DNA of 32,000 nt from an uncultured archaeon (GCA_964354495.1 CAYHAA010000009.1:79884-111883); one strand, 5' to 3'. Shown: positions 3,934-28,444, counted from the first letter of the stretch. Notes: generated by a model not told the origin, from the sequence alone. Made by a program: numbers and translations.

Positions 3934-5079
3934 TCACAGCGACTTCTTTGTGATAATCAGGTCTTTGCCATCTATCTTCACTGGCATCGCCGGAGGCAGA
4001 TCCAATAGCCAATCCTCGAGCTCCTCAGGTGTCTTAAAGCGAAGTAGTATACCCAGTCTATCAAGGGGTAATGTCTCATACCGAGTCATGATCTTCTTCA
4101 TCTGGAACATGCGGAATGCTTCAAGTTCAGCCAGCGCTTCTTCAGCAAGCTCCTTTGACTTGTCAAACCAAGGGCTCTCTTTCTCAAACTCCCAGATTTC
4201 TACAAGTCCTTCCACTGAGCCTGTTATGACGTATCTACCATCCGGTGTGACAACCATGGAATGGACATTATCCGTATGGGTCAAATCAGCAACGAGAACA
4301 CCGCCGCGTAGGACCCAGACACGCACCGTTCCATCAGACGAACCGGTGATTACGTGCTGGCCATCAGTCGTTATGTGGATTGTGAGAATGGGCGCATGAT
4401 GACCTGTCATCGTCTTAAGCAGAGTACCTGTTTCGAGGTCCCAGAGGTACACGATACCATCCTGATCGCCTGAGAGAATGTATCGAGAATCAGCAGTCAT
4501 AACCAGAGCAGTCACATGACCCTGATGTCCCTCAAGGAGTCTGAGTAGAACACCAAGTTCAAAGTCCCAAATCCAGACAGCGCCAACATCTCTTGTGCCA
4601 GGTGTCCGTTTGCTTCCAGAGATCAAATATCGCCCATCAGGACTCACCATCAATGAGTAAATCCCACGTCCATGGTCAGAACTACGCAGCATGACTCCTC
4701 TGTCTATATCCCAGTACCTTGCAACACCGTCATCCCCACCAGTGACGATGAATCGCTGATCTGGGCTGACAGCGATTGCTGTGACATGAGCAGAGTTGGG
4801 TGCAAGAGACCGGATCAACTCATGCGTTTCGAGGTCCCAAATCTTGACAGCGAGGTCCTTGTCGGCAATCGAAACAAGACGCTTACCATCTGGCATAACA
4901 ACAAGCCTGTAGACGGGCCCATTATGACCGAGGAACTTATGGAGCTCCTTTCCTGATGCAAAGTCCCACAGGCGTATTGTGGTGTCTTGACCGCCCGAAA
5001 CGATGACTCGACCATCTGGTGTGATTGCCAAGCTCCAGACAGTGAATTCGTGCCCTTCCATTTGACCACTTGGTGTCAT
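3934..5079 (-). CDS. 7-repeat WD40 beta-propeller protein with C-terminal PCI-like winged helix
   Basis: Seven GH...WD-type repeats (e.g. GHEFTVWSLAITPDGRVIVSGGQDTTIRLWD), a helical linker, then RYETLPLDRLGILLRFKTPEELEDWLLDL...VKIDGKDLII. ATG at 5079 preferred over the TTG at 5124. Confidence 0.9.
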   Translation of the reverse strand: MTPSGQMEGHEFTVWSLAITPDGRVIVSGGQDTTIRLWDFASGKELHKFLGHNGPVYRLVVMPDGKRLVSIADKDLAVKIWDLETHELIRSLAPNSAHVTAIAVSPDQRFIVTGGDDGVARYWDIDRGVMLRSSDHGRGIYSLMVSPDGRYLISGSKRTPGTRDVGAVWIWDFELGVLLRLLEGHQGHVTALVMTADSRYILSGDQDGIVYLWDLETGTLLKTMTGHHAPILTIHITTDGQHVITGSSDGTVRVWVLRGGVLVADLTHTDNVHSMVVTPDGRYVITGSVEGLVEIWEFEKESPWFDKSKELAEEALAELEAFRMFQMKKIMTRYETLPLDRLGILLRFKTPEELEDWLLDLPPAMPVKIDGKDLIITKKSL

Positions 5080-5193
5080 CTCGTTGACCAAATTCGGGCA
5101 TCTCCTCATTCCAGTTGTTGGCAACTGATGCAGTGTGATAAATGGAAAAAAAGCTTATGGCATATACCGAGGATACAAGAAAAAGAGAAGGAG

Positions 5194-8281: not shown

Positions 8282-8902
8282 TTAACCCTTACGCTCGGAT
8301 ACGTCCTCGCGCAGGGCATCGACCCATACCGGAGCCCCTTTCAGTTCGGAAGCCTCTTCGGGCGTGAGTTCTTTATACTGAACGAGAGTCATGTCTTCCG
8401 GGAAGATACCGCTGACACCAGCAGGGTCCTCCATCACAAGAGTGAAGGGAAATCGTCCTTGCATTGCGGCTTTCATCTCTTCGAGTATCTTAGATGCTCT
8501 TTCTCTCTCTGCTTTCAACTCTGCAAATCTGCAGGCAGACTCGACGACAGCGCGAACCCGAAACAAGATACCTTCGACATTTGAGATGAAGGCATCAGCT
8601 GAAGGGCCCGGTTCAACATCAATACCCCATTCAGGCAACCGATAGGTGCAGGAGCCAGATCGAACTACTCTAACGTTTAGGAGAGACTCATCATCTACGT
8701 ACAGGCTGAATCGAGAGGGCTTTCTCTGCTCAGCAGAAAAGACATCGTTATGACTGAAACCGCACTTGGGACACCGAACCATGAACATTGCAAGTTCATT
8801 GAAGAATGGAACGCTGTAGAGCATAGAGCGGACCTCGAGTCTGCCTGTGCCACAGGCCGGGCAACTGGATGCTAGTTCGTTTCCTAGTGTCATCTCAACC
8901 AA
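8282..8902 (-). CDS. ZPR1-type zinc finger protein (archaeal single-domain form)
   Basis: CPACG...YSVPFFNELAMFMVRCPKCGFSHNDV; LNVRVVRS; IDVEPGPSADAFISNVEGIL; FTLVMEDPAGVSGI, all characteristic of the ZPR1 domain. Confidence 0.92.
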   Translation of the reverse strand: MVEMTLGNELASSCPACGTGRLEVRSMLYSVPFFNELAMFMVRCPKCGFSHNDVFSAEQRKPSRFSLYVDDESLLNVRVVRSGSCTYRLPEWGIDVEPGPSADAFISNVEGILFRVRAVVESACRFAELKAERERASKILEEMKAAMQGRFPFTLVMEDPAGVSGIFPEDMTLVQYKELTPEEASELKGAPVWVDALREDVSERKG

Positions 8903-9095: not shown

Positions 9096-10289
9096 ATGGA
9101 GATTAACGGTATCTACATCATTAAGCGGGATACTGGAGTGTGTCTGTACTACAAGGACTTCTCGGGTTCTGCATTTGACCCACAGCTTCTCTCATCCTTT
9201 CTTGTAGCAATGACATCATTCTTTGATGAAGCCACGCGTTCGATTAAGTCGAAAGCACGTGCATTTGAGGGCACCGACTACACTATCCTTGTGGAATTCG
9301 GCGAATGGACACTGGGCGCGATATCAACAAAGGTTGACGACCAGCATGTCAGAGCAAAACTGAGACGAGCTATTGCCAGATTCGAGGAGCAGTTCGCAGT
9401 CCTGAAATTCATCGAACTTGACCTGGCAGTTCATACTCGATTCGAACAGACAGTCATGAGTGAGTTTGTGCGGGAGAACATTGCGCCGGAAACTCTCATG
9501 GCGGTAAGGCCTGAGTGGGAGTACCTTGCCCACAGACCAGATGTCATTTCGTTTCTGAGACTCATCCCGGATATTTGCTCTGTCGAGGATGCTGCATCCT
9601 TCTTGGAGGTCCCAGTTGAGATTGCGCTCAATCTTGCAGCGGAGGCGCTCTGGGAAGGCGTGATAGTCATCACAAACCCTGTGCGACCCGATGATATCTA
9701 CCAGACGACATCACTGACCCCTTCTGAAGAGGCGCTGGAAGGCCTCTCTCCGCAAGCAGCCAAGACTCTTTCAGAGTTAGACGGGGAAACCCCACTGTCC
9801 ATTGCAGCGGAGCGGGTAAGGACAGGAGACCTGAAACGTTTTCTTGAAGAAGTTGCATGGCTTCAGAAGAGAAGCATTGTTGAGCTCGTTTCGCCAACAC
9901 AGGCCGTAGTAGTTAGATACTCTTCAGCACTGCAAGTACTATTGAAGCGACTGTCAGAGATCATTGGCTTTCCGCCAGTCAGGAGAATCTTCTTTGAGGC
10001 TCGCGAGAAATTGGCAAGACTCTATCCATGGCTGGCATTTGTGGGTTTCAAGGACAGCTTAGATATTGATATGAGAAGCTCGCTTCTGTCGGCGACATTG
10101 AAGGGATCCATTGCTCCAGAAACAATAGAGGATGGTTTTAGAGCCTTTATCCAGTTTATTGCTAGAATGGGGAAGGATCTCTTGGGCAAAAGACCACTTA
10201 ACAAGATTATCTTCAACACGAAGAATGAAATCGAACAACGATTTCCGAGCACTGTGTTCCAAATCGAGTGGGAAACGTTTCTTGTCTGA
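9096..10289 (+). CDS. Longin-like domain + two winged-helix-like repeats + C-terminal helical domain
   Basis: N-terminal ~115 aa has the longin beta-beta-alpha-beta-beta-beta-alpha pattern (IYII...GVCLYYKDF...DPQLLSSFLVAMTSFFDE...TILVEFGEWTLGAI...LRRAIARFEEQF); WH-like FLRLIPDICSVEDAASFL...LWEGVI and LSELDGETPLSIAAER...LQKRSIVEL. Confidence 0.65.
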   Translation: MEINGIYIIKRDTGVCLYYKDFSGSAFDPQLLSSFLVAMTSFFDEATRSIKSKARAFEGTDYTILVEFGEWTLGAISTKVDDQHVRAKLRRAIARFEEQFAVLKFIELDLAVHTRFEQTVMSEFVRENIAPETLMAVRPEWEYLAHRPDVISFLRLIPDICSVEDAASFLEVPVEIALNLAAEALWEGVIVITNPVRPDDIYQTTSLTPSEEALEGLSPQAAKTLSELDGETPLSIAAERVRTGDLKRFLEEVAWLQKRSIVELVSPTQAVVVRYSSALQVLLKRLSEIIGFPPVRRIFFEAREKLARLYPWLAFVGFKDSLDIDMRSSLLSATLKGSIAPETIEDGFRAFIQFIARMGKDLLGKRPLNKIIFNTKNEIEQRFPSTVFQIEWETFLV

Positions 10290-10406
10290 GATTCATTGAG
10301 GCGTGAATTGTCTCTTGGCTCGCTAGCAGGCCGACACGCAAATCCCTTAAACGTTGGTTCTTGCATCAGTTGGGCGAGGAGTAGAATAGAAGTGCAAAAA
10401 GCAAGT

Positions 10407-11171
10407 ATGACAGGCACTGTTGCAGCTTTCATTCTTGGTCCAATCATCCTTGCAGTTTTTGTTCTTCTCTCGATGACAGGATATGTTGATGCTCTTCTTG
10501 TTTTGCTATCAATACTGACGCCCCTGACAGCATTCCTGATTGGTACGCTGGGGCTACGCCTCTTTGGAAGAGAATCAGAAATGAGACATGACATGTTTCA
10601 TAGCGTCAATCTCTGGATATCCATTGGTCTAATCATGCTCTCCCTCTCAGAGATTGCAGCAATTCTAGTGAGTCTCACTGCGGGCTCTTTACAGATTGAA
10701 GCAACTATAGGACTAGTTCAGATACCGGGGCTACTGCTCTGGGGCCTTGGGATCTTGCAGTATCTTCGGTCAGTGAACTCATCTCTCGAGTTTGCAGAGA
10801 CTGGAAGACTTTGGACGAGTCTGCTAGTCATCGTGTCACTATCCACCTTGGTGCTTATTGGCATCAATGCCCTCTACATGCCTTGGATTGGAGCTATTGA
10901 GAATGTCGTTCTGTCACCTATCATTGTGGGCCAAGGTATGCTTGCCATTATCACGCTGGGACTTGTCTGGACCTTTAGACATGGAGAGATTGCTAGACCT
11001 TTGGTCTTGGTTTTCTGTGGATTCTTGCTATACCTCGTTCGCACTGTCCACTGGGCATTCACGATAACCACGATTGGTACGCCGCTCAATAGTATTATTG
11101 CTGTGGAAGCATACATCTTCTTTGGTGCAGCATTAGTGCTAGCGCGGAATCTTGGGGCTTCTGTCAAGTGA
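10407..11171 (+). CDS. Uncharacterised polytopic membrane protein (~8 TM)
   Basis: Eight hydrophobic stretches and no soluble domain; ATG at 10407 preferred over the upstream TTG at 10296. Confidence 0.7.
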   Translation: MTGTVAAFILGPIILAVFVLLSMTGYVDALLVLLSILTPLTAFLIGTLGLRLFGRESEMRHDMFHSVNLWISIGLIMLSLSEIAAILVSLTAGSLQIEATIGLVQIPGLLLWGLGILQYLRSVNSSLEFAETGRLWTSLLVIVSLSTLVLIGINALYMPWIGAIENVVLSPIIVGQGMLAIITLGLVWTFRHGEIARPLVLVFCGFLLYLVRTVHWAFTITTIGTPLNSIIAVEAYIFFGAALVLARNLGASVK

Positions 11172-18177: not shown

Positions 18178-20034
18178 TCATCCCCAGTGAAGGGGTGTTC
18201 CACAGTGGTCGCAGACTATTGTTTCGCCAGGTAGTGCCCGTTTGGCAAGCCCGGCGCCACACTGTGGGCAGGCAATCTTCTTCGGAGCAGTATCCTCTGA
18301 TTTTGTCTGGATTCTCAGAAGAACTTCACGCAGATTTTCCCGCATCTCGCCCAGCATTAGCTCAAGCTTGGTCTCATTATTGCTGGCAACTGCTATTCTC
18401 AACACTAGATTCTCCTTTGATGCGGAGCCAACTACTACAAACTCATCACCTGCAAGAGCCTTCCCATAGTACCACGCCTCAAGACCAGTCTTGGGATTTG
18501 TCTGCTCATCAACAAACAGAACACTGTGCTGCTCTATCACGTTCTTTACGATTTCAAGCATCTCAACAGGATCGGCGTTTGCGTCGATTTGGTACTCGCA
18601 TGCATGCTGTGTCTGAAGCGACGTTTCCATTAGGAGTTGGAGGTCTTGAAGAGATTTCGTCTGGAGATAGGCATCTCTCACAGCAGACGCATGTGCGAGA
18701 AACACTGACAATATCGATTCTCCGTGTTGACTGCACATGAGATAGACATCAGCGCTCTTTGCAAGTTCTCGGACCTGAACTAGTTCAGTTGGGTTATGGC
18801 ATTTATGACACTCATAGAGTTGCATGTATGTTCCAGAGAGTGTGGCTGGATACGCAGTATTAGACAAGGAACGTTCGCTTCCATGTCCATTCCGACACTC
18901 TACCTTGAGTTCAGTCGTGATGTCTTTTATCTTCGAATCACGAATTGTAATAGGAGCTGAGCACTTTGTACACTTGAGGCTCTCTTCAATCGATGATTTC
19001 CTATCTAAATCAGGCTCTCTACTCTCAAGATGCTTGTAGAGATCAGCTTTGAGACTCTTGTGCATTGTTCCGTGCAATGAACACACAAGATCGAGCTCAA
19101 CATTGCTACCACTCACTTTCTTTCCCACGATTTCTGTAAGTAAGTCGCAGTCATCGCATTTCATTATCCCGCCAACAATAGCATCAATAGCTTCTTCATC
19201 GAGATCAGTGGGTTGGTTCATCTCAACAGAGTGGCCATTCGGGCAGCTGCATTTCAGTCTGTACTTGCCTTTGTCAATCTCAATACTCCGTATCGATAGT
19301 CTGCTTGCACATTGTGTACAGTTGAGCATCGATCGGACAACAGTGCCTTCAGACATGGCCTCTGCTATTTTCTCCAGCATCCACGCATGCTTTGCAGGCA
19401 TCTCTTTCTTTGTCCTACCGTGAGCGGGACAGGATACCTCTACTCTCGCTGTATCACCCTTGGTGGCTGTACCCAAGACCTGGCAGGGTAGTCCACATTG
19501 CTCACAGTGTATCAGTCGTTTGAAGATGGTCTTGAGAATTGAGGGGTCAGCATCAGTTGGTGCAAATCGTGTCTCCTTGTGACCATTCGGACAGCGATAC
19601 TTGAACTCCATTATCCCGTTCTTCTCTTCTATCGTCTGAGTTGAAAAGACCTGCCTGCATCGTGGGCAGCTCAATGAGTCAAGAATCGACTTGGCACTAT
19701 TCACGGTTCCTTTGAGACCAGCAATGGCGCTATGATAGAAGGATGGTATTCTTTTCTTCTGAGGACCATGCACAGGACAGAGGAACACATACTCAACTTC
19801 GTTTCTGCCAAGGTCTGTATGCACCAGAGACATTGTGGAACCACACTCGACGCAGGTAAAGAGTCCTTTGAAGATCTCAGGCGCCATACTATCTGCTTGA
19901 TACCGTCCAATGTCTCTCTTCCCCTTGTGGCCCCTGAGACATTGGCAATAGAGTCTAACTGTGCCGCCGCGCATCTCGCCGGCCAGAATGTAGAAGGGTT
20001 CCTTACATTTCTTGCAGACGAACACATCAATCAA
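18178..20034 (-). CDS. Eight-module zinc-repeat protein with platform-like domain and C-terminal zinc ribbon
   Basis: Eight C-x2-C-x21-C units alternating ...CxxGH and ...CxxHG; alpha/beta region after residue ~470; terminal CPQC...CDHC. Confidence 0.85.
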   Translation of the reverse strand: MIDVFVCKKCKEPFYILAGEMRGGTVRLYCQCLRGHKGKRDIGRYQADSMAPEIFKGLFTCVECGSTMSLVHTDLGRNEVEYVFLCPVHGPQKKRIPSFYHSAIAGLKGTVNSAKSILDSLSCPRCRQVFSTQTIEEKNGIMEFKYRCPNGHKETRFAPTDADPSILKTIFKRLIHCEQCGLPCQVLGTATKGDTARVEVSCPAHGRTKKEMPAKHAWMLEKIAEAMSEGTVVRSMLNCTQCASRLSIRSIEIDKGKYRLKCSCPNGHSVEMNQPTDLDEEAIDAIVGGIMKCDDCDLLTEIVGKKVSGSNVELDLVCSLHGTMHKSLKADLYKHLESREPDLDRKSSIEESLKCTKCSAPITIRDSKIKDITTELKVECRNGHGSERSLSNTAYPATLSGTYMQLYECHKCHNPTELVQVRELAKSADVYLMCSQHGESILSVFLAHASAVRDAYLQTKSLQDLQLLMETSLQTQHACEYQIDANADPVEMLEIVKNVIEQHSVLFVDEQTNPKTGLEAWYYGKALAGDEFVVVGSASKENLVLRIAVASNNETKLELMLGEMRENLREVLLRIQTKSEDTAPKKIACPQCGAGLAKRALPGETIVCDHCGTPLHWG

Positions 20035-20110
20035 CTACCTAGGCAGAACAGGCATTCAGTCCTCTAGGCAATTGGCCTTCCTAATATGTACTCCGCATAC
20101 TGAAGCAGAC

Positions 20111-22387
20111 TCATTGGAGATACAAAGCAATAGTCAGTGTGTGCGTGCAATACCTGCACCGGATTGGCTGACGCTGGCCCAGCTCATCGACCTGTTCTGT
20201 GTCAAGAGGTGCGCCGCATCGGAGGCAGACCCATGAATCCATGGTATCAGCTAGTTCGTCAATTGTAGTAGGAAGCATCGAAATGTCCTCACCAAGAGCC
20301 TCGACCTTAACAACAGCATGACGACCATTTTCAGGACCTGTGATCATAAGAATGACCGCAATCTTGCGTTTTGTATATTTTCCTTCCGCATAGCCGCGAA
20401 TGGTTCCGATGAACTCTCCAGCAATTACGTGCTCTTCTGTATCCACCACATGGAAGTTCTTTGTTGGCAATATCTTCTCAGCTTTCGTGAACAGCACTTT
20501 GGCATTCCAATCAAGGGTCTGCTCCTGCTGAGTCTTTTCAAGACCTGATAAGACAAGGTCGAATTCCGCGGAAGTCTTCTTTGAAGGTGTAAGCAGGTCA
20601 CAGACAGATCGGATGAGATAGGGCTCCACGCTCAACGTATGAAGTTGGTCAAGGAAATCAATGTACGAAACAGTAGCAACAACCTTTCCCTGAACGCAGT
20701 CCTTCGTCGGATAGAAACTGAATTGTGGGCTTCTGAATCCGCCAACTTCAATCCTAGATATCGTCTTCACATTTTCACCTGCAAGTTCCATGCAGTCTTG
20801 AGGAAATGCAACAATGCTCACGGTAACATTCGTGATTACATAGCCGCTGTTGTTGGCAACCTTCACCTTGTAGTCAAACTTACCGCCAACAATTTCGCAG
20901 CCTCGCATCACCTTGACACCAATGTCCGGAGTCTCAATCGATTCTACTTCAGCCTCTAGAGTCTTAGGTGGTTGAATCTCGGGCACTTCGACAGGAGGCT
21001 TTGCTTTATCAGCTTGTATCTCCTCATAGGCTTTCTGCATGGCTTTTGCGTGATCAGGTGGAATGTCAAAGACGTACTTGCCATGAATCGGGCATAGCTG
21101 CACTACTCTATCCTCACGGCCCCCAGGCTCGACATAGACCAAATCGAGCTGCTCATAACACTCTGGGCATTGAAAGAAGCGCTTGTAGAGGTCGACAAGG
21201 GTCTCAAGCTCAAGCTCAGGCTTGAACAGCCTCTTGCTTCTATGACCATTTCTGCACTCAACATCGAATTCAACAAGCCCGCGATGCTCTTCGACATCTC
21301 TGAGGGTCAATGGCATACTGCATTTCTCACAACTGAGGCTTCGTACCATTGATGGTAGCCTATCGATAGTATGTTCATGATCAACTATCACATTGTAGAT
21401 AGAAGGTGTCGCTTCGCGTTGCATCACACCATGAATCGGACAGACAATCTGAAAGCTAATCTTCTTTGCACTCTTCCGCTTGCTTAGTATATGCGTCAGA
21501 TGCCCACATTCATCGCAAGTGAGCATGGCAGTCGTGATTCGATTGGTGACAGCCTCGCTCCACGTCAATGGCAGCACTCTGTCGGTCACCTGCTTGCTCC
21601 CAGGACAGATGCACTTCAACCTGTAACCGGACTTCTCATCCTCAATACTACGGATAGCCAATGACTGTCTGCAACCCTGAGCCGTCAAGGTGGCTCGAAG
21701 AACAGCATCTTCAGGTATCTCTGAAACTGCTTCTCGAAGAGGATCGACCAAAGAGACAGGAATATCCTTCTTTGTGACACCATGAATGGGGCAAGCCACA
21801 TGAACTCGGGTGATACTCCCTCTTGGTTCGACGTCAGATATATGGCCGGGAAGGCCACAACAATCGCAATGTACCACCCTCTGCAGAATCCTCTTCAGAA
21901 GCACGGATTCCAGATTAGAGGGCAGGAACAGTATTGCCTTGTGTCCATTAGCACATCTGGCATCAATCTCCATGATGCCGCGCCTTTCTTCTATACCACT
22001 GATTGCAAACACTAGTCCGCATTGGGAACATCTGAATGAATCGATGATCGCCCTGGGACTATCGACCTCTGCAGCCACTAGCTGGATGGTTGAGAGAAAT
22101 TCACGCGGAAATTCACGTTTCTGAATTCCATGTCTAGGACAGATGAAGACACCCTCGGTCTTACTTCCCTGTACCAAGGTCTCGACGAGAGTCATGTTCG
22201 AGCCACAGTCTGTGCAGACGAACATCTTCTTGAAAATCACTGAGCCGACATCTTGAATCTGGTGCTCGGCCAGACGCCTTGCGCTCTTGTGCCCATTTAG
22301 ACACTGTGTTTCCAGAGTCAAAATATGGTCCCGCATCTCAGCATTCCGGATCAGCAGAGGCTCCTGGCATTTCTTGCATGAGAACAT
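20111..22387 (-). CDS. Eight-module zinc-repeat protein with Pro/Glu linker, appendage-like (beta-sandwich + platform) domain and C-terminal zinc ribbon
   Basis: Same eight units as the neighbour (unit 5 degenerate); linker KAKPPVEVPEIQPPK; Ig-like KFDYKVKVANNSGYVITNVTV; DLLTPSKKTSAEF junction; terminal CLRC...CRYC. Confidence 0.85.
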   Translation of the reverse strand: MFSCKKCQEPLLIRNAEMRDHILTLETQCLNGHKSARRLAEHQIQDVGSVIFKKMFVCTDCGSNMTLVETLVQGSKTEGVFICPRHGIQKREFPREFLSTIQLVAAEVDSPRAIIDSFRCSQCGLVFAISGIEERRGIMEIDARCANGHKAILFLPSNLESVLLKRILQRVVHCDCCGLPGHISDVEPRGSITRVHVACPIHGVTKKDIPVSLVDPLREAVSEIPEDAVLRATLTAQGCRQSLAIRSIEDEKSGYRLKCICPGSKQVTDRVLPLTWSEAVTNRITTAMLTCDECGHLTHILSKRKSAKKISFQIVCPIHGVMQREATPSIYNVIVDHEHTIDRLPSMVRSLSCEKCSMPLTLRDVEEHRGLVEFDVECRNGHRSKRLFKPELELETLVDLYKRFFQCPECYEQLDLVYVEPGGREDRVVQLCPIHGKYVFDIPPDHAKAMQKAYEEIQADKAKPPVEVPEIQPPKTLEAEVESIETPDIGVKVMRGCEIVGGKFDYKVKVANNSGYVITNVTVSIVAFPQDCMELAGENVKTISRIEVGGFRSPQFSFYPTKDCVQGKVVATVSYIDFLDQLHTLSVEPYLIRSVCDLLTPSKKTSAEFDLVLSGLEKTQQEQTLDWNAKVLFTKAEKILPTKNFHVVDTEEHVIAGEFIGTIRGYAEGKYTKRKIAVILMITGPENGRHAVVKVEALGEDISMLPTTIDELADTMDSWVCLRCGAPLDTEQVDELGQRQPIRCRYCTHTLTIALYLQ

Positions 22388-22539: not shown

Positions 22540-23814
22540 TCAGTGGCTGCCCGGCGAATCTGCATTCTCTAGGATTTTGTCTGCGGACTTTTTCAGTTTT
22601 GACCTGTAACCTCGAGTGGTGTAGACACGCACAGGTTTCATTATTCTAGAGAAGCTCCTTGCCATCGGACTCAGGTCAGTCAGTCTCCAAAACTCATAAC
22701 CGCTTGATCCACGTTCAAAAAGGGCAATCTCATCAAGATTGAATTTTCCCGGGTAGAAGGTGACTGAGGGGCGGTCAGGAAAATCAATGTACACGTTGCG
22801 TGGGTCAATATCAGCATCCTCGGCTATTTCGCTCTCAATGGAAAACAAGCCATCGGGAGTTGAGAGCTTGGTCAGGAAACTTGGGTCTGAAATCGCACGT
22901 GTGCTGACCATCTTTATCAGATAACGCTTGAGGTAGTCGGAAAATATTCGATTGGCGGCCACTAGAGCCTCAGGTTCATCGGGAGTGACGTTTAGAAGCC
23001 TATTCAGAAATGTAAGGTCATCGAACTGGAAGAATCTTTCAGTTTCATCCACGGGCGAAGGAAAGAGAAGCGATCCTGCCTCGTCAAGGACTCGTAGAAG
23101 CATCAATTCTGCAGCACGCACGGTCTTATGGAAGTATACAGCATCAAACATGTTGACTGCGGCAGATAGGTATGATTCCAGTGTATAGAGAGAGCCACGC
23201 TCTATTGCTATCTTGTTCTTTGCAATGCGAGTTGCATCGAACAGCTTGTGATACTCTAGTTGGGCGTAGTCGACACCTGCAAAGTAGGAGTCGCGCTCAA
23301 GGTCATCGATGAGTTCAGGGTTGATTGGGCAGGTTCTGATGTTCAGTTTCACACCCTTTATTGGTACTCCATGTTCAAGAACATCCTGGATCTCTGAGCA
23401 TGAATAACCGTGTTTCTCGATGATGTTTCCCGCCTCAGTATTATCAAGAATCGCTTTTGTAAGTCTGAGAGAGCCAAAACCCCGTACTGTGAGGTACTCC
23501 TCCATGACATTCGCCCACGGACCATTTGCAAGCATCAATAGACACGCTGCTAGCCGGCCCTTCTGAATCTCCTCGCCAGTGCCTCCCAAGTACTCCAGGA
23601 AGATTCTCGTCATATTGATGAAACCCAGTGTTCTGCCGAAGAGTCCAATATCAGCACCAGGATAGACCAACGAGAGCCCCGCGGGCTCCTTGATATAGCG
23701 AAGTCGCTGAAACAGCCTAGTATCTATGAGTTCCTTCTCAACTGATGAGAGTCCTACATATCCGTGAATTGGATCCTTGATCTGAAGGACTGATGGAAAG
23801 TCCGTTATTGGCAT
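22540..23814 (-). CDS. HD-superfamily dNTPase/SAMHD1-like fold with degenerate active site
   Basis: Family scaffold present (IKDPIHGYV, IDTRLFQRLRYIKE, VYPGA, LERDSY, YFHKTVRAAELML) but the metal ligands are replaced. ATG 23814 preferred over 23841. Confidence 0.85.
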   Translation of the reverse strand: MPITDFPSVLQIKDPIHGYVGLSSVEKELIDTRLFQRLRYIKEPAGLSLVYPGADIGLFGRTLGFINMTRIFLEYLGGTGEEIQKGRLAACLLMLANGPWANVMEEYLTVRGFGSLRLTKAILDNTEAGNIIEKHGYSCSEIQDVLEHGVPIKGVKLNIRTCPINPELIDDLERDSYFAGVDYAQLEYHKLFDATRIAKNKIAIERGSLYTLESYLSAAVNMFDAVYFHKTVRAAELMLLRVLDEAGSLLFPSPVDETERFFQFDDLTFLNRLLNVTPDEPEALVAANRIFSDYLKRYLIKMVSTRAISDPSFLTKLSTPDGLFSIESEIAEDADIDPRNVYIDFPDRPSVTFYPGKFNLDEIALFERGSSGYEFWRLTDLSPMARSFSRIMKPVRVYTTRGYRSKLKKSADKILENADSPGSH

Positions 23815-23954
23815 TTGAAACTCAACCGAATGACTATTCAACTAAAGGGTATAAAAGTGACTGAAATACCTAACCATCGTTGCTCGTAGGAGAATCTTAT
23901 TCAAGGATGGCTTTCGATCCGTTCCATGCAATATATCCCTAGAGAGGCAAAGCC

Positions 23955-25769: not shown

Positions 25770-25841
25770 TTGATACTGGTACACTCAATAAACATTCAAA
25801 ACAGTGTGATGCCTTGCCAGATGTGGGACCGGTGCTCTGGA

Positions 25842-26921
25842 GTGACAACAATCCGGAAAAAACCTCTTCGATTAGTAGAAATTCAAGAGAGTGTGCTTCC
25901 TGAAGATGAATGGATAATCGGCATTTCCGTTCTCGACTATTTCAACGGTGTTGGTTACTCCATGCCGCGCAGTCAAAGAATCGAGCAGGAGCCAGGCGAT
26001 GACGGGGATTCCCCGCCAGGTAGGAGAAAGTCCTCCGAGGTCGTAGCAGACTCGAATTCGGAAGACTGGTCGAAGACTGCAGGACTTGAAGCTGAACCAG
26101 ATGATGCTCTTTTGGCATCCAGTGAAAGCAATGAGAAAGGAGCACAAATTGATCATCCTCATAGCTCGACTCCTATTGATAGTGCGCTAAACGACGAGGA
26201 TTCTATGAACTTGTATGCGTTCATTCCAGGAATCTTCTATTGCTCAGCTCAAGAAACATCAGTAGATGCAGTCTTGATTGAAGTGACTCAGAGTGAGAGG
26301 TTTGGAATGACACTATCCAGCTTCCGTCCCGAGGATGTTCGGACTCTTGACATCAGTAAGGGATTCATACTCGATGAAACAGGTAAGGGAAAGTCCGTCC
26401 AAACGACTGTTGACACACTAGGAAGCTTTCATTCTGAGGATTTTCTCAAGGACTCTGGTCTGACCACTGAAGAAATGATCTACTCGAAGGAGATTGAACT
26501 GGCACGGCGTCTATCAGGACATATGCCTCTCGCCGAGCTCAGGAAAGCCTACGCATCCAGTTCATTCCTCCAGGCCAGACTCATGAAACTCTTGGAGGAT
26601 ATCGATTTCTTTGGGTTGGCGCCGCGACGACGCATCTATGTGAGAAATGAGAAACACCCCTATGGCAGGGTAATCGAAGTCAGTTATCGCGGGCTCGATC
26701 GGACACTCTATCTTGGAGGTGAATCCGGAATCTCATGCCCAGATGAGACTGATTTAGAGGGTCGACTGAATTGCCTTGTTTTCACGAAGCACATAGGCGC
26801 AGGAACTGAAACGACCGTAGAAGAGGCAATTATCGAGATGCTTCACCTTGTCAAAACCGGTCTCAAGAAGCAAACATCTAAGGAAGCGGTGTTGGACAAG
26901 CTATCACAGGAGGGTGCCTGA
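25842..26921 (+). CDS. Hypothetical protein with ~80-aa acidic low-complexity insert
   Basis: Long ORF; GTG at 25842 has GGTG 7 nt upstream (track start TTG 25770); its stop overlaps the next ATG (TGATG). No family recognised. Confidence 0.7.
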   Translation: MTTIRKKPLRLVEIQESVLPEDEWIIGISVLDYFNGVGYSMPRSQRIEQEPGDDGDSPPGRRKSSEVVADSNSEDWSKTAGLEAEPDDALLASSESNEKGAQIDHPHSSTPIDSALNDEDSMNLYAFIPGIFYCSAQETSVDAVLIEVTQSERFGMTLSSFRPEDVRTLDISKGFILDETGKGKSVQTTVDTLGSFHSEDFLKDSGLTTEEMIYSKEIELARRLSGHMPLAELRKAYASSSFLQARLMKLLEDIDFFGLAPRRRIYVRNEKHPYGRVIEVSYRGLDRTLYLGGESGISCPDETDLEGRLNCLVFTKHIGAGTETTVEEAIIEMLHLVKTGLKKQTSKEAVLDKLSQEGA

Positions 26922-28444
26922 TGAAAGAACTGACGGAGATTGCTAGGTCTGCTGTCAACAGCCTCCATCAGAACCAGGTCTTCGAAGTAATCTCTGAGTT
27001 CCAGAAGAAGGATGCTATTGAGATTCGTGATGAATTAGGGATTTCAGGCCACTCCAAGATGATTGCCAAGCCATTTGACCTCCTTGAATCCGTGAAAAGG
27101 CACATCCTTGCCAGGGCATTCCACGACAACGACCAAGTCAAGTTTCTAATGTCAGTGCCAGTCTGGGCAGGATTCAAACCGAACATTGACTATCTTGAAA
27201 CAGAAGAGCAGGCAATTCTTGCTGGCAAACGTAGTGCACTCGCCATGCTCTGGATTATGATACTACCAAGGCTCTCCGCATATCCCACAATCCTTCCCAG
27301 TGAAATCGAGAATCAAGGATTAGAAAAACTAGTGGAAAGTCTGCTGTTGTCGGACGAGTCACGTGCTATGCTCAACAGGGTCATATCGCTGGAACTGATC
27401 AATAGAGGATTTATTGAGGAGTACTTCGAGATCTCAGGGCTTGACAGTGGCTATGTAATCGACGATTCAATGAGGAAGAGTAGACTTCGGGCATTAATCG
27501 CACTGATAGTGATGAAGGCATGCGATTGCCCATTCGATCTTGATAAGATCTTCAACCTCCCAGAACATAGACTCATTGAGGAGACCACACTCTATATCAT
27601 TACAATGCAGACAAGAGCATCTCTTGCCTACCAGATTTCGGGAGGCGGCTCAAGCAGTCCATTTGACTGGCCTCTGGTAGGTACCGCCAGAGTGTTTGAG
27701 AGACTAATGTCAACAGTTGATGTACTACGCAGGACTGCATCCAAAATGACGACTTGCTCTCTATTCTCCTCAGTAAATCAAGGAAAAGAGCAAGTATGGA
27801 CCGAGAGGGAATTCGCATCGTTTCTGGTGAGAGAGATAGCTGATTATTGCAACGGGGTACTTAGGACTAGTTCAAGCAATGGCAAGAACGAAGAACTTGA
27901 CGCGTTCATCGACATTCTGACGGGCGAGAATATTGAAATCGCAGCAAGGGTCATGGAATCTGAAGATAGGCCACTGCAGCTCTACGAGGAATTATCGGAC
28001 TGCAAGAAGAGAGCGCGTTTTGGTGAAAAGGCTCGGATCTCACCTGAGAGGCGTTTTCGAATTGTCCTCTCCAACCTGAGACGGCGCCTTGAAGAGGCCC
28101 AGTCAAATCCCCTAGCAGCAGATGATCTTGAGGAAGAGATATTCAGCGCGTTTGATGCAATAATGGAGCTCGTCGAAAAACACACTGATTCACTGGGTGC
28201 GCAGGTGGACAAATTCACTGAGGAACTATGCTTTGAGACCTCATTCCATATCCTTGAGATACTGAAACTTGGTAGATCGCTCGGCGACTTGCCATGGGTT
28301 TGCCGATATTTCGCTGAAGAGGCAACAAGAATCAGTATCTCTCGTGGAGACTTGGACAGCCTTGAAGAAAGACATAGATTGAAACGTATTGTATCTGCGT
28401 TCACAGGGGGTGTGGTCTACCTTGTTCTTCAGGCACAGAAGTGA
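26921..28444 (+). CDS. Hypothetical, predominantly helical protein
   Basis: 507-aa ORF translationally coupled to the previous gene; no motif recognised. Confidence 0.75.
   Translation: MKELTEIARSAVNSLHQNQVFEVISEFQKKDAIEIRDELGISGHSKMIAKPFDLLESVKRHILARAFHDNDQVKFLMSVPVWAGFKPNIDYLETEEQAILAGKRSALAMLWIMILPRLSAYPTILPSEIENQGLEKLVESLLLSDESRAMLNRVISLELINRGFIEEYFEISGLDSGYVIDDSMRKSRLRALIALIVMKACDCPFDLDKIFNLPEHRLIEETTLYIITMQTRASLAYQISGGGSSSPFDWPLVGTARVFERLMSTVDVLRRTASKMTTCSLFSSVNQGKEQVWTEREFASFLVREIADYCNGVLRTSSSNGKNEELDAFIDILTGENIEIAARVMESEDRPLQLYEELSDCKKRARFGEKARISPERRFRIVLSNLRRRLEEAQSNPLAADDLEEEIFSAFDAIMELVEKHTDSLGAQVDKFTEELCFETSFHILEILKLGRSLGDLPWVCRYFAEEATRISISRGDLDSLEERHRLKRIVSAFTGGVVYLVLQAQK

Follow-up and report, generated by a model that had tools for sequence, protein, structure and literature searches.

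Zinc ribbons and adaptin-type appendage domains are both known, the latter from Asgard archaea as well. Classical zinc ribbons (those of TFIIS, TFIIB, RPB9 and L33, and also PF13408) consist of two knuckles, a hairpin and a third strand, with four ligands, and come as single or double domains; many of those in transcription, translation and recombination proteins bind nucleic acid. Tandem zinc modules with both Cys and His ligands are found in the eukaryotic C2H2 arrays, whose beta-beta-alpha fingers follow the pattern C-x2-4-C-x12-H-x3-5-H with a period of ~28 amino acids (aa). Appendages, or “ears”, occur in AP-2 alpha and beta2, AP-4 beta and COPI beta and gamma, with the GAE-platform region of BBS9 as a further example; in adaptins the trunk of the protein is an Adaptin_N alpha-solenoid. 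Appendages are known hubs of protein interaction, and archaeal and Asgard proteins with appendage-like IG and TBP lobes have already been reported: one from the Methanobacteriales also has a zinc ribbon, Asgard versions are proposed to be such hubs, and the published examples lie in neighborhoods of the endosomal sorting machinery ESCRT and are fused to steadiness-box, Vps28_C or GOLD domains (10.1101/2024.02.06.579148; PMC10307638). Here we describe two adjoining genes, designated L and S, in a 32,000-nucleotide stretch of DNA from an uncultured archaeon of the Thorarchaeota, an Asgard group (GCA_964354495.1 CAYHAA010000009.1:79884-111883; hereafter the window, with positions counted from its first letter). 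Each codes for a fourfold array of a 116-aa double zinc-ribbon unit, joined in L to an appendage-like tail. The unit, the fourfold array and the combination with an ear are new, in that none of the databases or papers searched contains them.

Gene L (20111–22387, minus strand, as are all features of both genes given below) is an open reading frame (ORF) of 758 aa, with a zinc-ribbon array followed by a hinge, an appendage and a four-cysteine (C4) ribbon. Gene S (18178–20034), of 618 aa from a TTG start, has an array, a platform domain and a C4 ribbon. The L array (20990–22387, residues 1–466) is made up of four A+B units (residues 2–117, 118–233, 235–350, and 351–466), or eight modules; the S array (18625–20034, residues 1–470) likewise has four A+B units, with eight intact modules. 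The two are ~35% identical across the array.

An initial annotation of the window had described 16 modules of the form C-x2-C-x21-C-x2-(GH or HG). A regular-expression search of both translations finds this motif seven times in L (at residues 4, 58, 120, 174, 291, 353, and 407) and eight times in S (at residues 7, 61, 123, 177, 239, 293, 355, and 409), so that the count holds as 15 intact modules and one degenerate one. GH and HG types are in strict alternation in both proteins. Chance is excluded: shuffling the residues of each protein 20,000 times gives an expectation of 0.0002–0.0005 occurrences, with a maximum of one. The A modules have the ligand set C-x2-C...C-x3-H and the B modules C-x2-C...C-x2-H, and each would form a Cys3-His zinc site, to judge by the conservation of these ligands. 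The two types are homologous, and they align in register (hhalign probability 96.2%, E 2.7e-9, 46 columns). The pairing of A and B into a larger repeat present four times had also been proposed, with a length of ~118 aa; the pair and its fourfold repetition stand, with an actual period of 116 aa (54 from A to B and 62 from B to A).

The degenerate module is the fifth in L (21518–21682, residues 236–290), an A module in which, as had been claimed, the ligand motifs are replaced by AQGC and CPGSK: the first Cys and the GH are gone, with Cys 239, 259, and 261 retained. This degeneration is common to the whole L family, with the consensus SxxC...KCxCPG, C239 and C261 conserved in at least 90% of sequences, and P262 invariant. 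At 0.62, column identity in module 5 is similar to that in the other modules.

Conservation elsewhere in the arrays extends to both ligands and spacing. More than 120 orthologues of L (55–97% identity) and more than 110 of S (44–94%) were found, the named ones nearly all from Thorarchaeota. The 222 family members retrieved contain 1368 modules, of which 1363 have a spacer of exactly 21 residues, and they keep the 54/62 spacing throughout. Within a set of 30 orthologues, all 24 module Cys of S are invariant, as are six of the eight His, the other two being at least 90% conserved; the ligand columns of L (again in 30 orthologues) are invariant or at least 90% conserved. All four Cys of the terminal ribbon are invariant in the L family, and the terminal-ribbon Cys are invariant in the S family too.

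Predicted structures place the modules within the zinc-ribbon fold. An AlphaFold2 model of S (618 aa), based on 30 orthologues, has a predicted local distance difference test score (pLDDT) of 88.9 and a predicted template-modeling score (pTM) of 0.70. In its secondary structure each of the eight modules begins with a knuckle and a beta-hairpin, continues with another knuckle and a third strand, and finishes in one or two helices, which matches the beta-strand and amphipathic helix originally assigned to each module; from motifs and prediction together, two knuckles and a three-stranded sheet are found in all eight. Unlike classical ribbons, the modules have Cys3His ligand sets, a fixed 21-residue spacer and an appended helix, and are organized in four 116-aa A+B units. 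They also differ from C2H2 fingers, being beta-rich with the 21-residue spacer and 54/62 periodicity. Membership in the C2H2 arrays was rejected: the C2H2 pattern is in two of 148 retrieved matches, and the overlaps that the unit hidden Markov model (HMM) finds with many such arrays are apparently spurious local stretches of 20–30 residues around CPxHG. Models from the ESM-Atlas, made independently, superpose on the S model over 519 aa for the S family (2.8 Å) and 469 aa for the L family (4.3 Å), which argues for a fixed geometry between predicted modules rather than beads on a string. Foldseek matches of S to beta-propellers in the PDB were discarded as 3Di repeat artefacts, with a TM-score of about 0.1 and a root-mean-square deviation above 20 Å. 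In a wide structural alignment with the whole S model, the best 50 rows cover only residues 450–580, so the array is barely sampled.

What follows the array in L is the main functional clue, and was omitted from the initial annotation, whose overall interpretation of an amplified module forming an elongated scaffold is partly supported. An acidic, Pro-rich hinge (20912–20989, residues 467–492), with pLDDT below 50, leads to the appendage, or “ear” (20243–20911, residues 493–715). This is modeled as an N-terminal beta-sandwich lobe (residues 493–600) packed on a C-terminal alpha/beta platform (residues 601–715), the arrangement of the appendage fold. A terminal ribbon of the form CxxC-x19-CxxC completes the protein (20114–20242, residues 716–758). 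In S, the array is followed by a platform domain without the sandwich (18295–18624, residues 471–580) and a CxxC-x15-CxxC terminal ribbon (18181–18294, residues 581–618). Within the L family, column identity is lowest in the hinge (0.46), followed by the array (0.69); it is highest in the ear, at 0.90 in the sandwich and 0.82 in the platform, and reaches 0.83 in the ribbon. The arrays have a family median isoelectric point (pI) of 7.0 in L and 7.5 in S; the tails are acidic, with a pI of about 5, and the hinge has a pI of 4.3.

The ears of AP-2, AP-4 and COPI and the BBS9 GAE-platform region are the closest known domains to the L appendage. The remainder of the protein differs: L has a zinc-ribbon array in its N-terminal 466 aa in place of the Adaptin_N solenoid, an extra C4 ribbon follows the ear, and neither mu or sigma partners nor clathrin motifs are known for it. 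Neither L nor S has a Pfam match to Adaptin_N or HEAT, or to Alpha_adaptinC2, B2-adapt-app_C or COP-gamma_platf at E up to 10, and shape matches to beta-adaptins reach a TM-score of about 0.25 at most. Because the solenoid, a Pfam appendage match and any closer likeness to beta-adaptins are all absent, we place L and S outside the adaptin family; their architecture resembles the trunk-hinge-ear plan of adaptor large subunits by analogy and not by homology. They are also distinct from the published archaeal appendage proteins in having no ESCRT neighbors, and the main text of neither study, as searched, mentions an eight-module A/B zinc-ribbon array (10.1101/2024.02.06.579148; PMC10307638).

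The repeat had not been recognized as a described family in the initial annotation, and this was borne out in Pfam, NCBIfam, PDB sequences and the literature searched. No Pfam model reaches its gathering score on either protein. The best below threshold are zf_UBZ on the terminal ribbon of L (22.1 bits; cut-off 25.6) and Zn_ribbon_recom (PF13408) on a B module of S (23.2 bits; cut-off 25.3; 11.8 bits in L), a family for which many S orthologues have a precomputed match on one module. There are no NCBIfam matches for L or S. A profile of the A+B unit finds only matches of E 0.1 or greater among all PDB sequences, those between 0.1 and 0.6 being the ribbons of RPB9/RPC10, bL33, and aIF2-beta. 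Full-text literature searches found no paper on zinc-ribbon arrays of this kind, and neither L nor S shows evidence of an enzyme family, a signal peptide or a membrane segment.

The unit does occur elsewhere in Asgard archaea, as a single copy. A profile of 116 positions was built from 55 units and searched against 1.84 billion representative proteins, yielding 273 matches; the single-unit figures that follow are from the best 150 of these. Sixty-five representatives have a near end-to-end unit, 58 of them outside the L/S family. Most of the latter are proteins of 125–390 aa with one unit, spacers of mostly 21–22 residues and six invariant Cys; the named holders are Helarchaeota, Promethearchaeota, and Ranarchaeia. 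Thorarchaeota L and S have four matches per protein (for the unit HMM on L, E 1e-31 to 1e-36), and the genome from which the window comes has eight (E 1e-31 to 6e-39), in L and S only. Four matches per protein, together with the same unit standing singly in other Asgard proteins, support the A+B pair as the true repeat. That the 116-aa unit is an Asgard-specific domain is strongly supported. One single-unit cluster (P0395) is labeled as a bacterium, Candidatus Deferrimicrobium; its relatives are all Asgard, and the label is probably due to a mis-binned contig. Matches confined to profile positions ~65–95, recurring 5–10 times per protein, look like local matches to Cys/His-rich repeat proteins around the CPxHG knuckle rather than relatives of the unit.

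Single-unit proteins such as NVM30078.1, MDD1777612.1, and MHA1713381.1 are true sequence relatives of L and S, matched by the profile from end to end. They differ in having one unit, occasionally two or three, and are annotated as hypothetical or generic zinc-ribbon proteins. In the ESM-Atlas, a cluster of Promethearchaeota proteins 162 aa long superposes on residues 1–108 of S at 2.5 Å; an Atlas feature search with one unit returned generic ribbon clusters only (LysW-like, IBR, DUF5679), all below 0.9. The unit is followed in the single-unit proteins by Pro-rich linkers, small C4 ribbons and sometimes domains resembling winged helices or PCI domains, and Pfam matches in the 58 relatives are confined to the extra C-terminal ribbons or PCI domains. 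The Helarchaeota protein NVM30078.1 has, after its unit, a tail of sandwich, platform and ribbon, which can be aligned with the tail of L. Some further arrangements were seen: two and a half units and then repeated winged-helix-like segments in Ranarchaeia (P0227/P0374; MHA1713381.1, MHA1838897.1); units interspersed with other sequence in Helarchaeota proteins of 511–584 aa (P0267, P0386); and, at L021:6024-7573, two unit-bearing genes in tandem, 18 bp apart (P0230, P0242), and after them a gene whose product exceeds 2790 aa and has no Pfam record.

The order in which the arrays arose can be read from a maximum-likelihood tree that combines 55 units from Thorarchaeota with 42 single units. 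Thorarchaeota units group by position rather than by protein: L1 with S1 (support 95/95), L2 with S2 (99/97), L3 with S3 (100/99), and L4 with S4 (100/96). Units 2 and 4 then come together (96/84), as do units 1 and 3 (80/61), with the single-unit proteins on the other side of the tree and Ranarchaeia units nearest the Thorarchaeota arrays. Ungapped identities agree: L and S modules in the same position are 32–44% identical in seven pairs and 23% in the eighth (module 8), and modules in different positions about 20–30%. From the tree and these identities, it is strongly supported by the sequences that one unit became two, that the two-unit block doubled to four, and that the gene was then duplicated, in Thorarchaeota. 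The tandem gene duplication suggested in the initial annotation is thus upheld, with the array predating duplication at one conserved locus. The precursor it had suggested, the single CxxC...CPxHG module of some archaeal radical-SAM proteins, is not borne out: the strict motif is in L and S only in this genome, and the precursor that can be demonstrated is the two-ribbon A+B unit of stand-alone Asgard proteins.

Units were found in five of 27 families in a 201-genome sample of the phylum, and four-unit arrays only in the order to which the window belongs. Across 61 genomes of its family, arrays are present in 46, and L and S occur together in the genus of the window and one other; one genus has only the S type, directly after a gene of the HD family, and most other matching genera have only the L type in that place. 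Two genera have no unit match in the genomes searched, which are 87–99% complete. The recurring gene order is HD_assoc_2, L and/or S, convergent UbiX, DUF2070, PadR, and ABC genes, with variations: CP070761 has HD-L and S elsewhere; JAWAQK01 has HD-L; and CP070658 has the HD gene, a 152-aa ORF and S. This ORF was considered as a possible L remnant and ruled out (E 9.3).

In the window, the HD_assoc_2 neighbor (22540–23841, minus strand) is SAMHD1/dGTPase-like, with Pfam HD_assoc_2 as its only match. Every Thorarchaeota locus inspected has it directly upstream of L or S. By eye its H...HD ligands are replaced, for example LLMLANGPW vs. LLHDIGHGPF in relatives. A paralogue of ~31% identity was noted at G000:C6:94654-95958. 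All 61 genomes of the family have an orthologue of the HD gene and 46 have arrays, and phyletic coupling between the two was rejected on these counts. The HD gene thus also occurs in genomes in which no array was found, and its place beside the arrays may reflect inherited gene order without a functional link. In two of six neighborhoods inspected, a gene of the SPFH/Band_7 family adjoins a unit protein, which is a lead only. In both of these unrelated contexts it is directly upstream: at L004:4787-5662 (next to the relocated S of CP070761) and at L019:5523-6791, where an 18 bp gap separates it from the gene for a protein with a single unit and a winged helix (P0235).

On balance, and with no more than moderate confidence, we read L and S as scaffold proteins in which a rigid, zinc-stabilized trunk presents a protein-docking ear. 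They would be cytoplasmic and non-enzymatic. The zinc sites would hold the small modules together as a stiff array of fixed geometry, a “trunk” with eight faces, each conserved in its own right, that might bind partners or do no more than set a distance. In L, this trunk would be joined through a flexible acidic hinge to an appendage of the adaptin/COPI type, the best conserved part of the protein, which presumably uses short peptide motifs to recruit other proteins, in the manner of eukaryotic ears; S would present the platform lobe only, and both chains would end in a C4 ribbon. They may serve membrane, cargo or ubiquitin-like sorting, or a process of another kind.

Several points weigh against this reading. 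Metal binding, rigidity and partner binding are all inferred. The ear model is of only moderate confidence (pLDDT 73, pTM 0.39), and at E up to 10 neither L nor S matches a Pfam appendage family. In the loci inspected, the conserved neighbors include no gene of trafficking, ESCRT or ubiquitin systems; the sole conserved neighbor is the degenerate HD-family gene, which persists where L and S are missing. Finally, the array genes are dispensable, given the two genera of the same family without a unit match.

A different function for the array would be nucleic-acid binding, with the eight ribbons reading or clamping DNA or RNA, possibly together with the SAMHD1-like neighbor. Some observations point this way: the names assigned automatically at source are those of RPC12/RpoP, Elf1, and topoisomerase zinc ribbons, and the B modules come near the Zn_ribbon_recom cut-off (23.2 vs. 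25.3 bits), a match precomputed in many S orthologues. The conserved upstream gene is moreover from a nucleotide-metabolism family, although it is kept in genomes where no array was found and its link to the arrays may again be inherited order. Near-neutral arrays (pI 7.0–7.5) with acidic tails fit poorly with a dedicated DNA- or RNA-binding protein, however, no nucleic-acid-binding family reaches threshold, and the tail has a predicted protein-docking fold. We consider nucleic-acid binding unlikely.

Distinctly unlikely, in our estimation, is a multivalent receptor for ubiquitin-like proteins or modified cargo, analogous to ESCRT-0, with ribbons that bind ubiquitin or ubiquitin-like proteins and an ear that recruits downstream machinery; this would amount to one form of the scaffold. 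Ubiquitin or ubiquitin-like proteins are bound by NZF and UBZ fingers, and the terminal ribbon of L has a match to zf_UBZ, although below threshold (22.1 vs. 25.6 bits); no ubiquitin-binding family reaches its threshold. Winged-helix/PCI-like fusions are found in single-unit relatives. Neither fusion to nor adjacency with a steadiness box, Vps28_C, UEV or any ESCRT gene was seen; the SPFH/Band_7 gene found beside a unit protein in two neighborhoods is absent in the other four. Asgard ESCRT-I/II-like proteins with several zinc ribbons and with appendages have been described and proposed as ESCRT-0 analogues (10.1101/2024.02.06.579148). All of this support is circumstantial. A further reading, in which L and S are archaeal sorting-adaptor subunits that came to the trunk-hinge-ear layout of eukaryotic coat adaptors along a separate path, the array binding cargo or ubiquitin-like tags and the ear recruiting ESCRT- or SPFH-type membrane-remodeling factors, we regard as equally doubtful. 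If it were true, it would represent a lineage-specific adaptor design in the closest prokaryotic relatives of eukaryotes, with a ribbon array replacing the alpha-solenoid trunk.

That the arrays serve as a metal store or buffer, or as a redox sensor, with nine Cys-rich sites per chain sequestering zinc (or iron) or sensing oxidation, is very improbable: the 33 Cys of L and 32 of S, and a C-P-x-H-G knuckle resembling the rubredoxin-type C-P-x-C-G knuckle, might suggest it, but every module position is its own orthologous lineage conserved far beyond the ligands, the modules are exactly spaced and joined to a conserved docking domain, and a Cys3His site is typical of structural zinc.

As scaffolds with a docking ear, the proteins would represent a second way of building a trunk-hinge-ear protein, in the archaeal lineage nearest eukaryotes; their partners, if found, would reveal what archaeal “ears” dock with, which bears on the origin of the vesicle-coat machinery. 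The unit itself adds a defined, Asgard-restricted domain absent from Pfam and NCBIfam, and the arrays are a clean example of repeat growth by successive doublings.

The start of S is probably not the TTG at 20034 used for the coordinates above: because orthologues begin MF(T/V)CKKC, the GTG at 20025 (MFVCKKC, 615 aa) is the better candidate, and 615 aa is the commonest length among full-length S orthologues. Starting at the TTG (20025–20034) adds the residues LID, which orthologues do not have. A scan for bacterial-type promoters and terminators gave no signal above shuffled sequences, and no clear archaeal TATA box was seen by eye in the two intergenic regions.

Elsewhere in the window, four ORFs of 291–507 aa, at 9096–11171 and 25770–28444 (both plus strand), have no Pfam match at E ≤0.001. 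A ZPR1-type protein (Zn_ribbon_ZPR1 plus the ZPR1 jelly-roll), a zinc-ribbon protein with eukaryotic relatives, is encoded 10 kb from L and S (8282–8902, minus strand), and a 396-aa WD40 beta-propeller protein (3934–5124, minus strand) has strong matches to eukaryotic WDR families.

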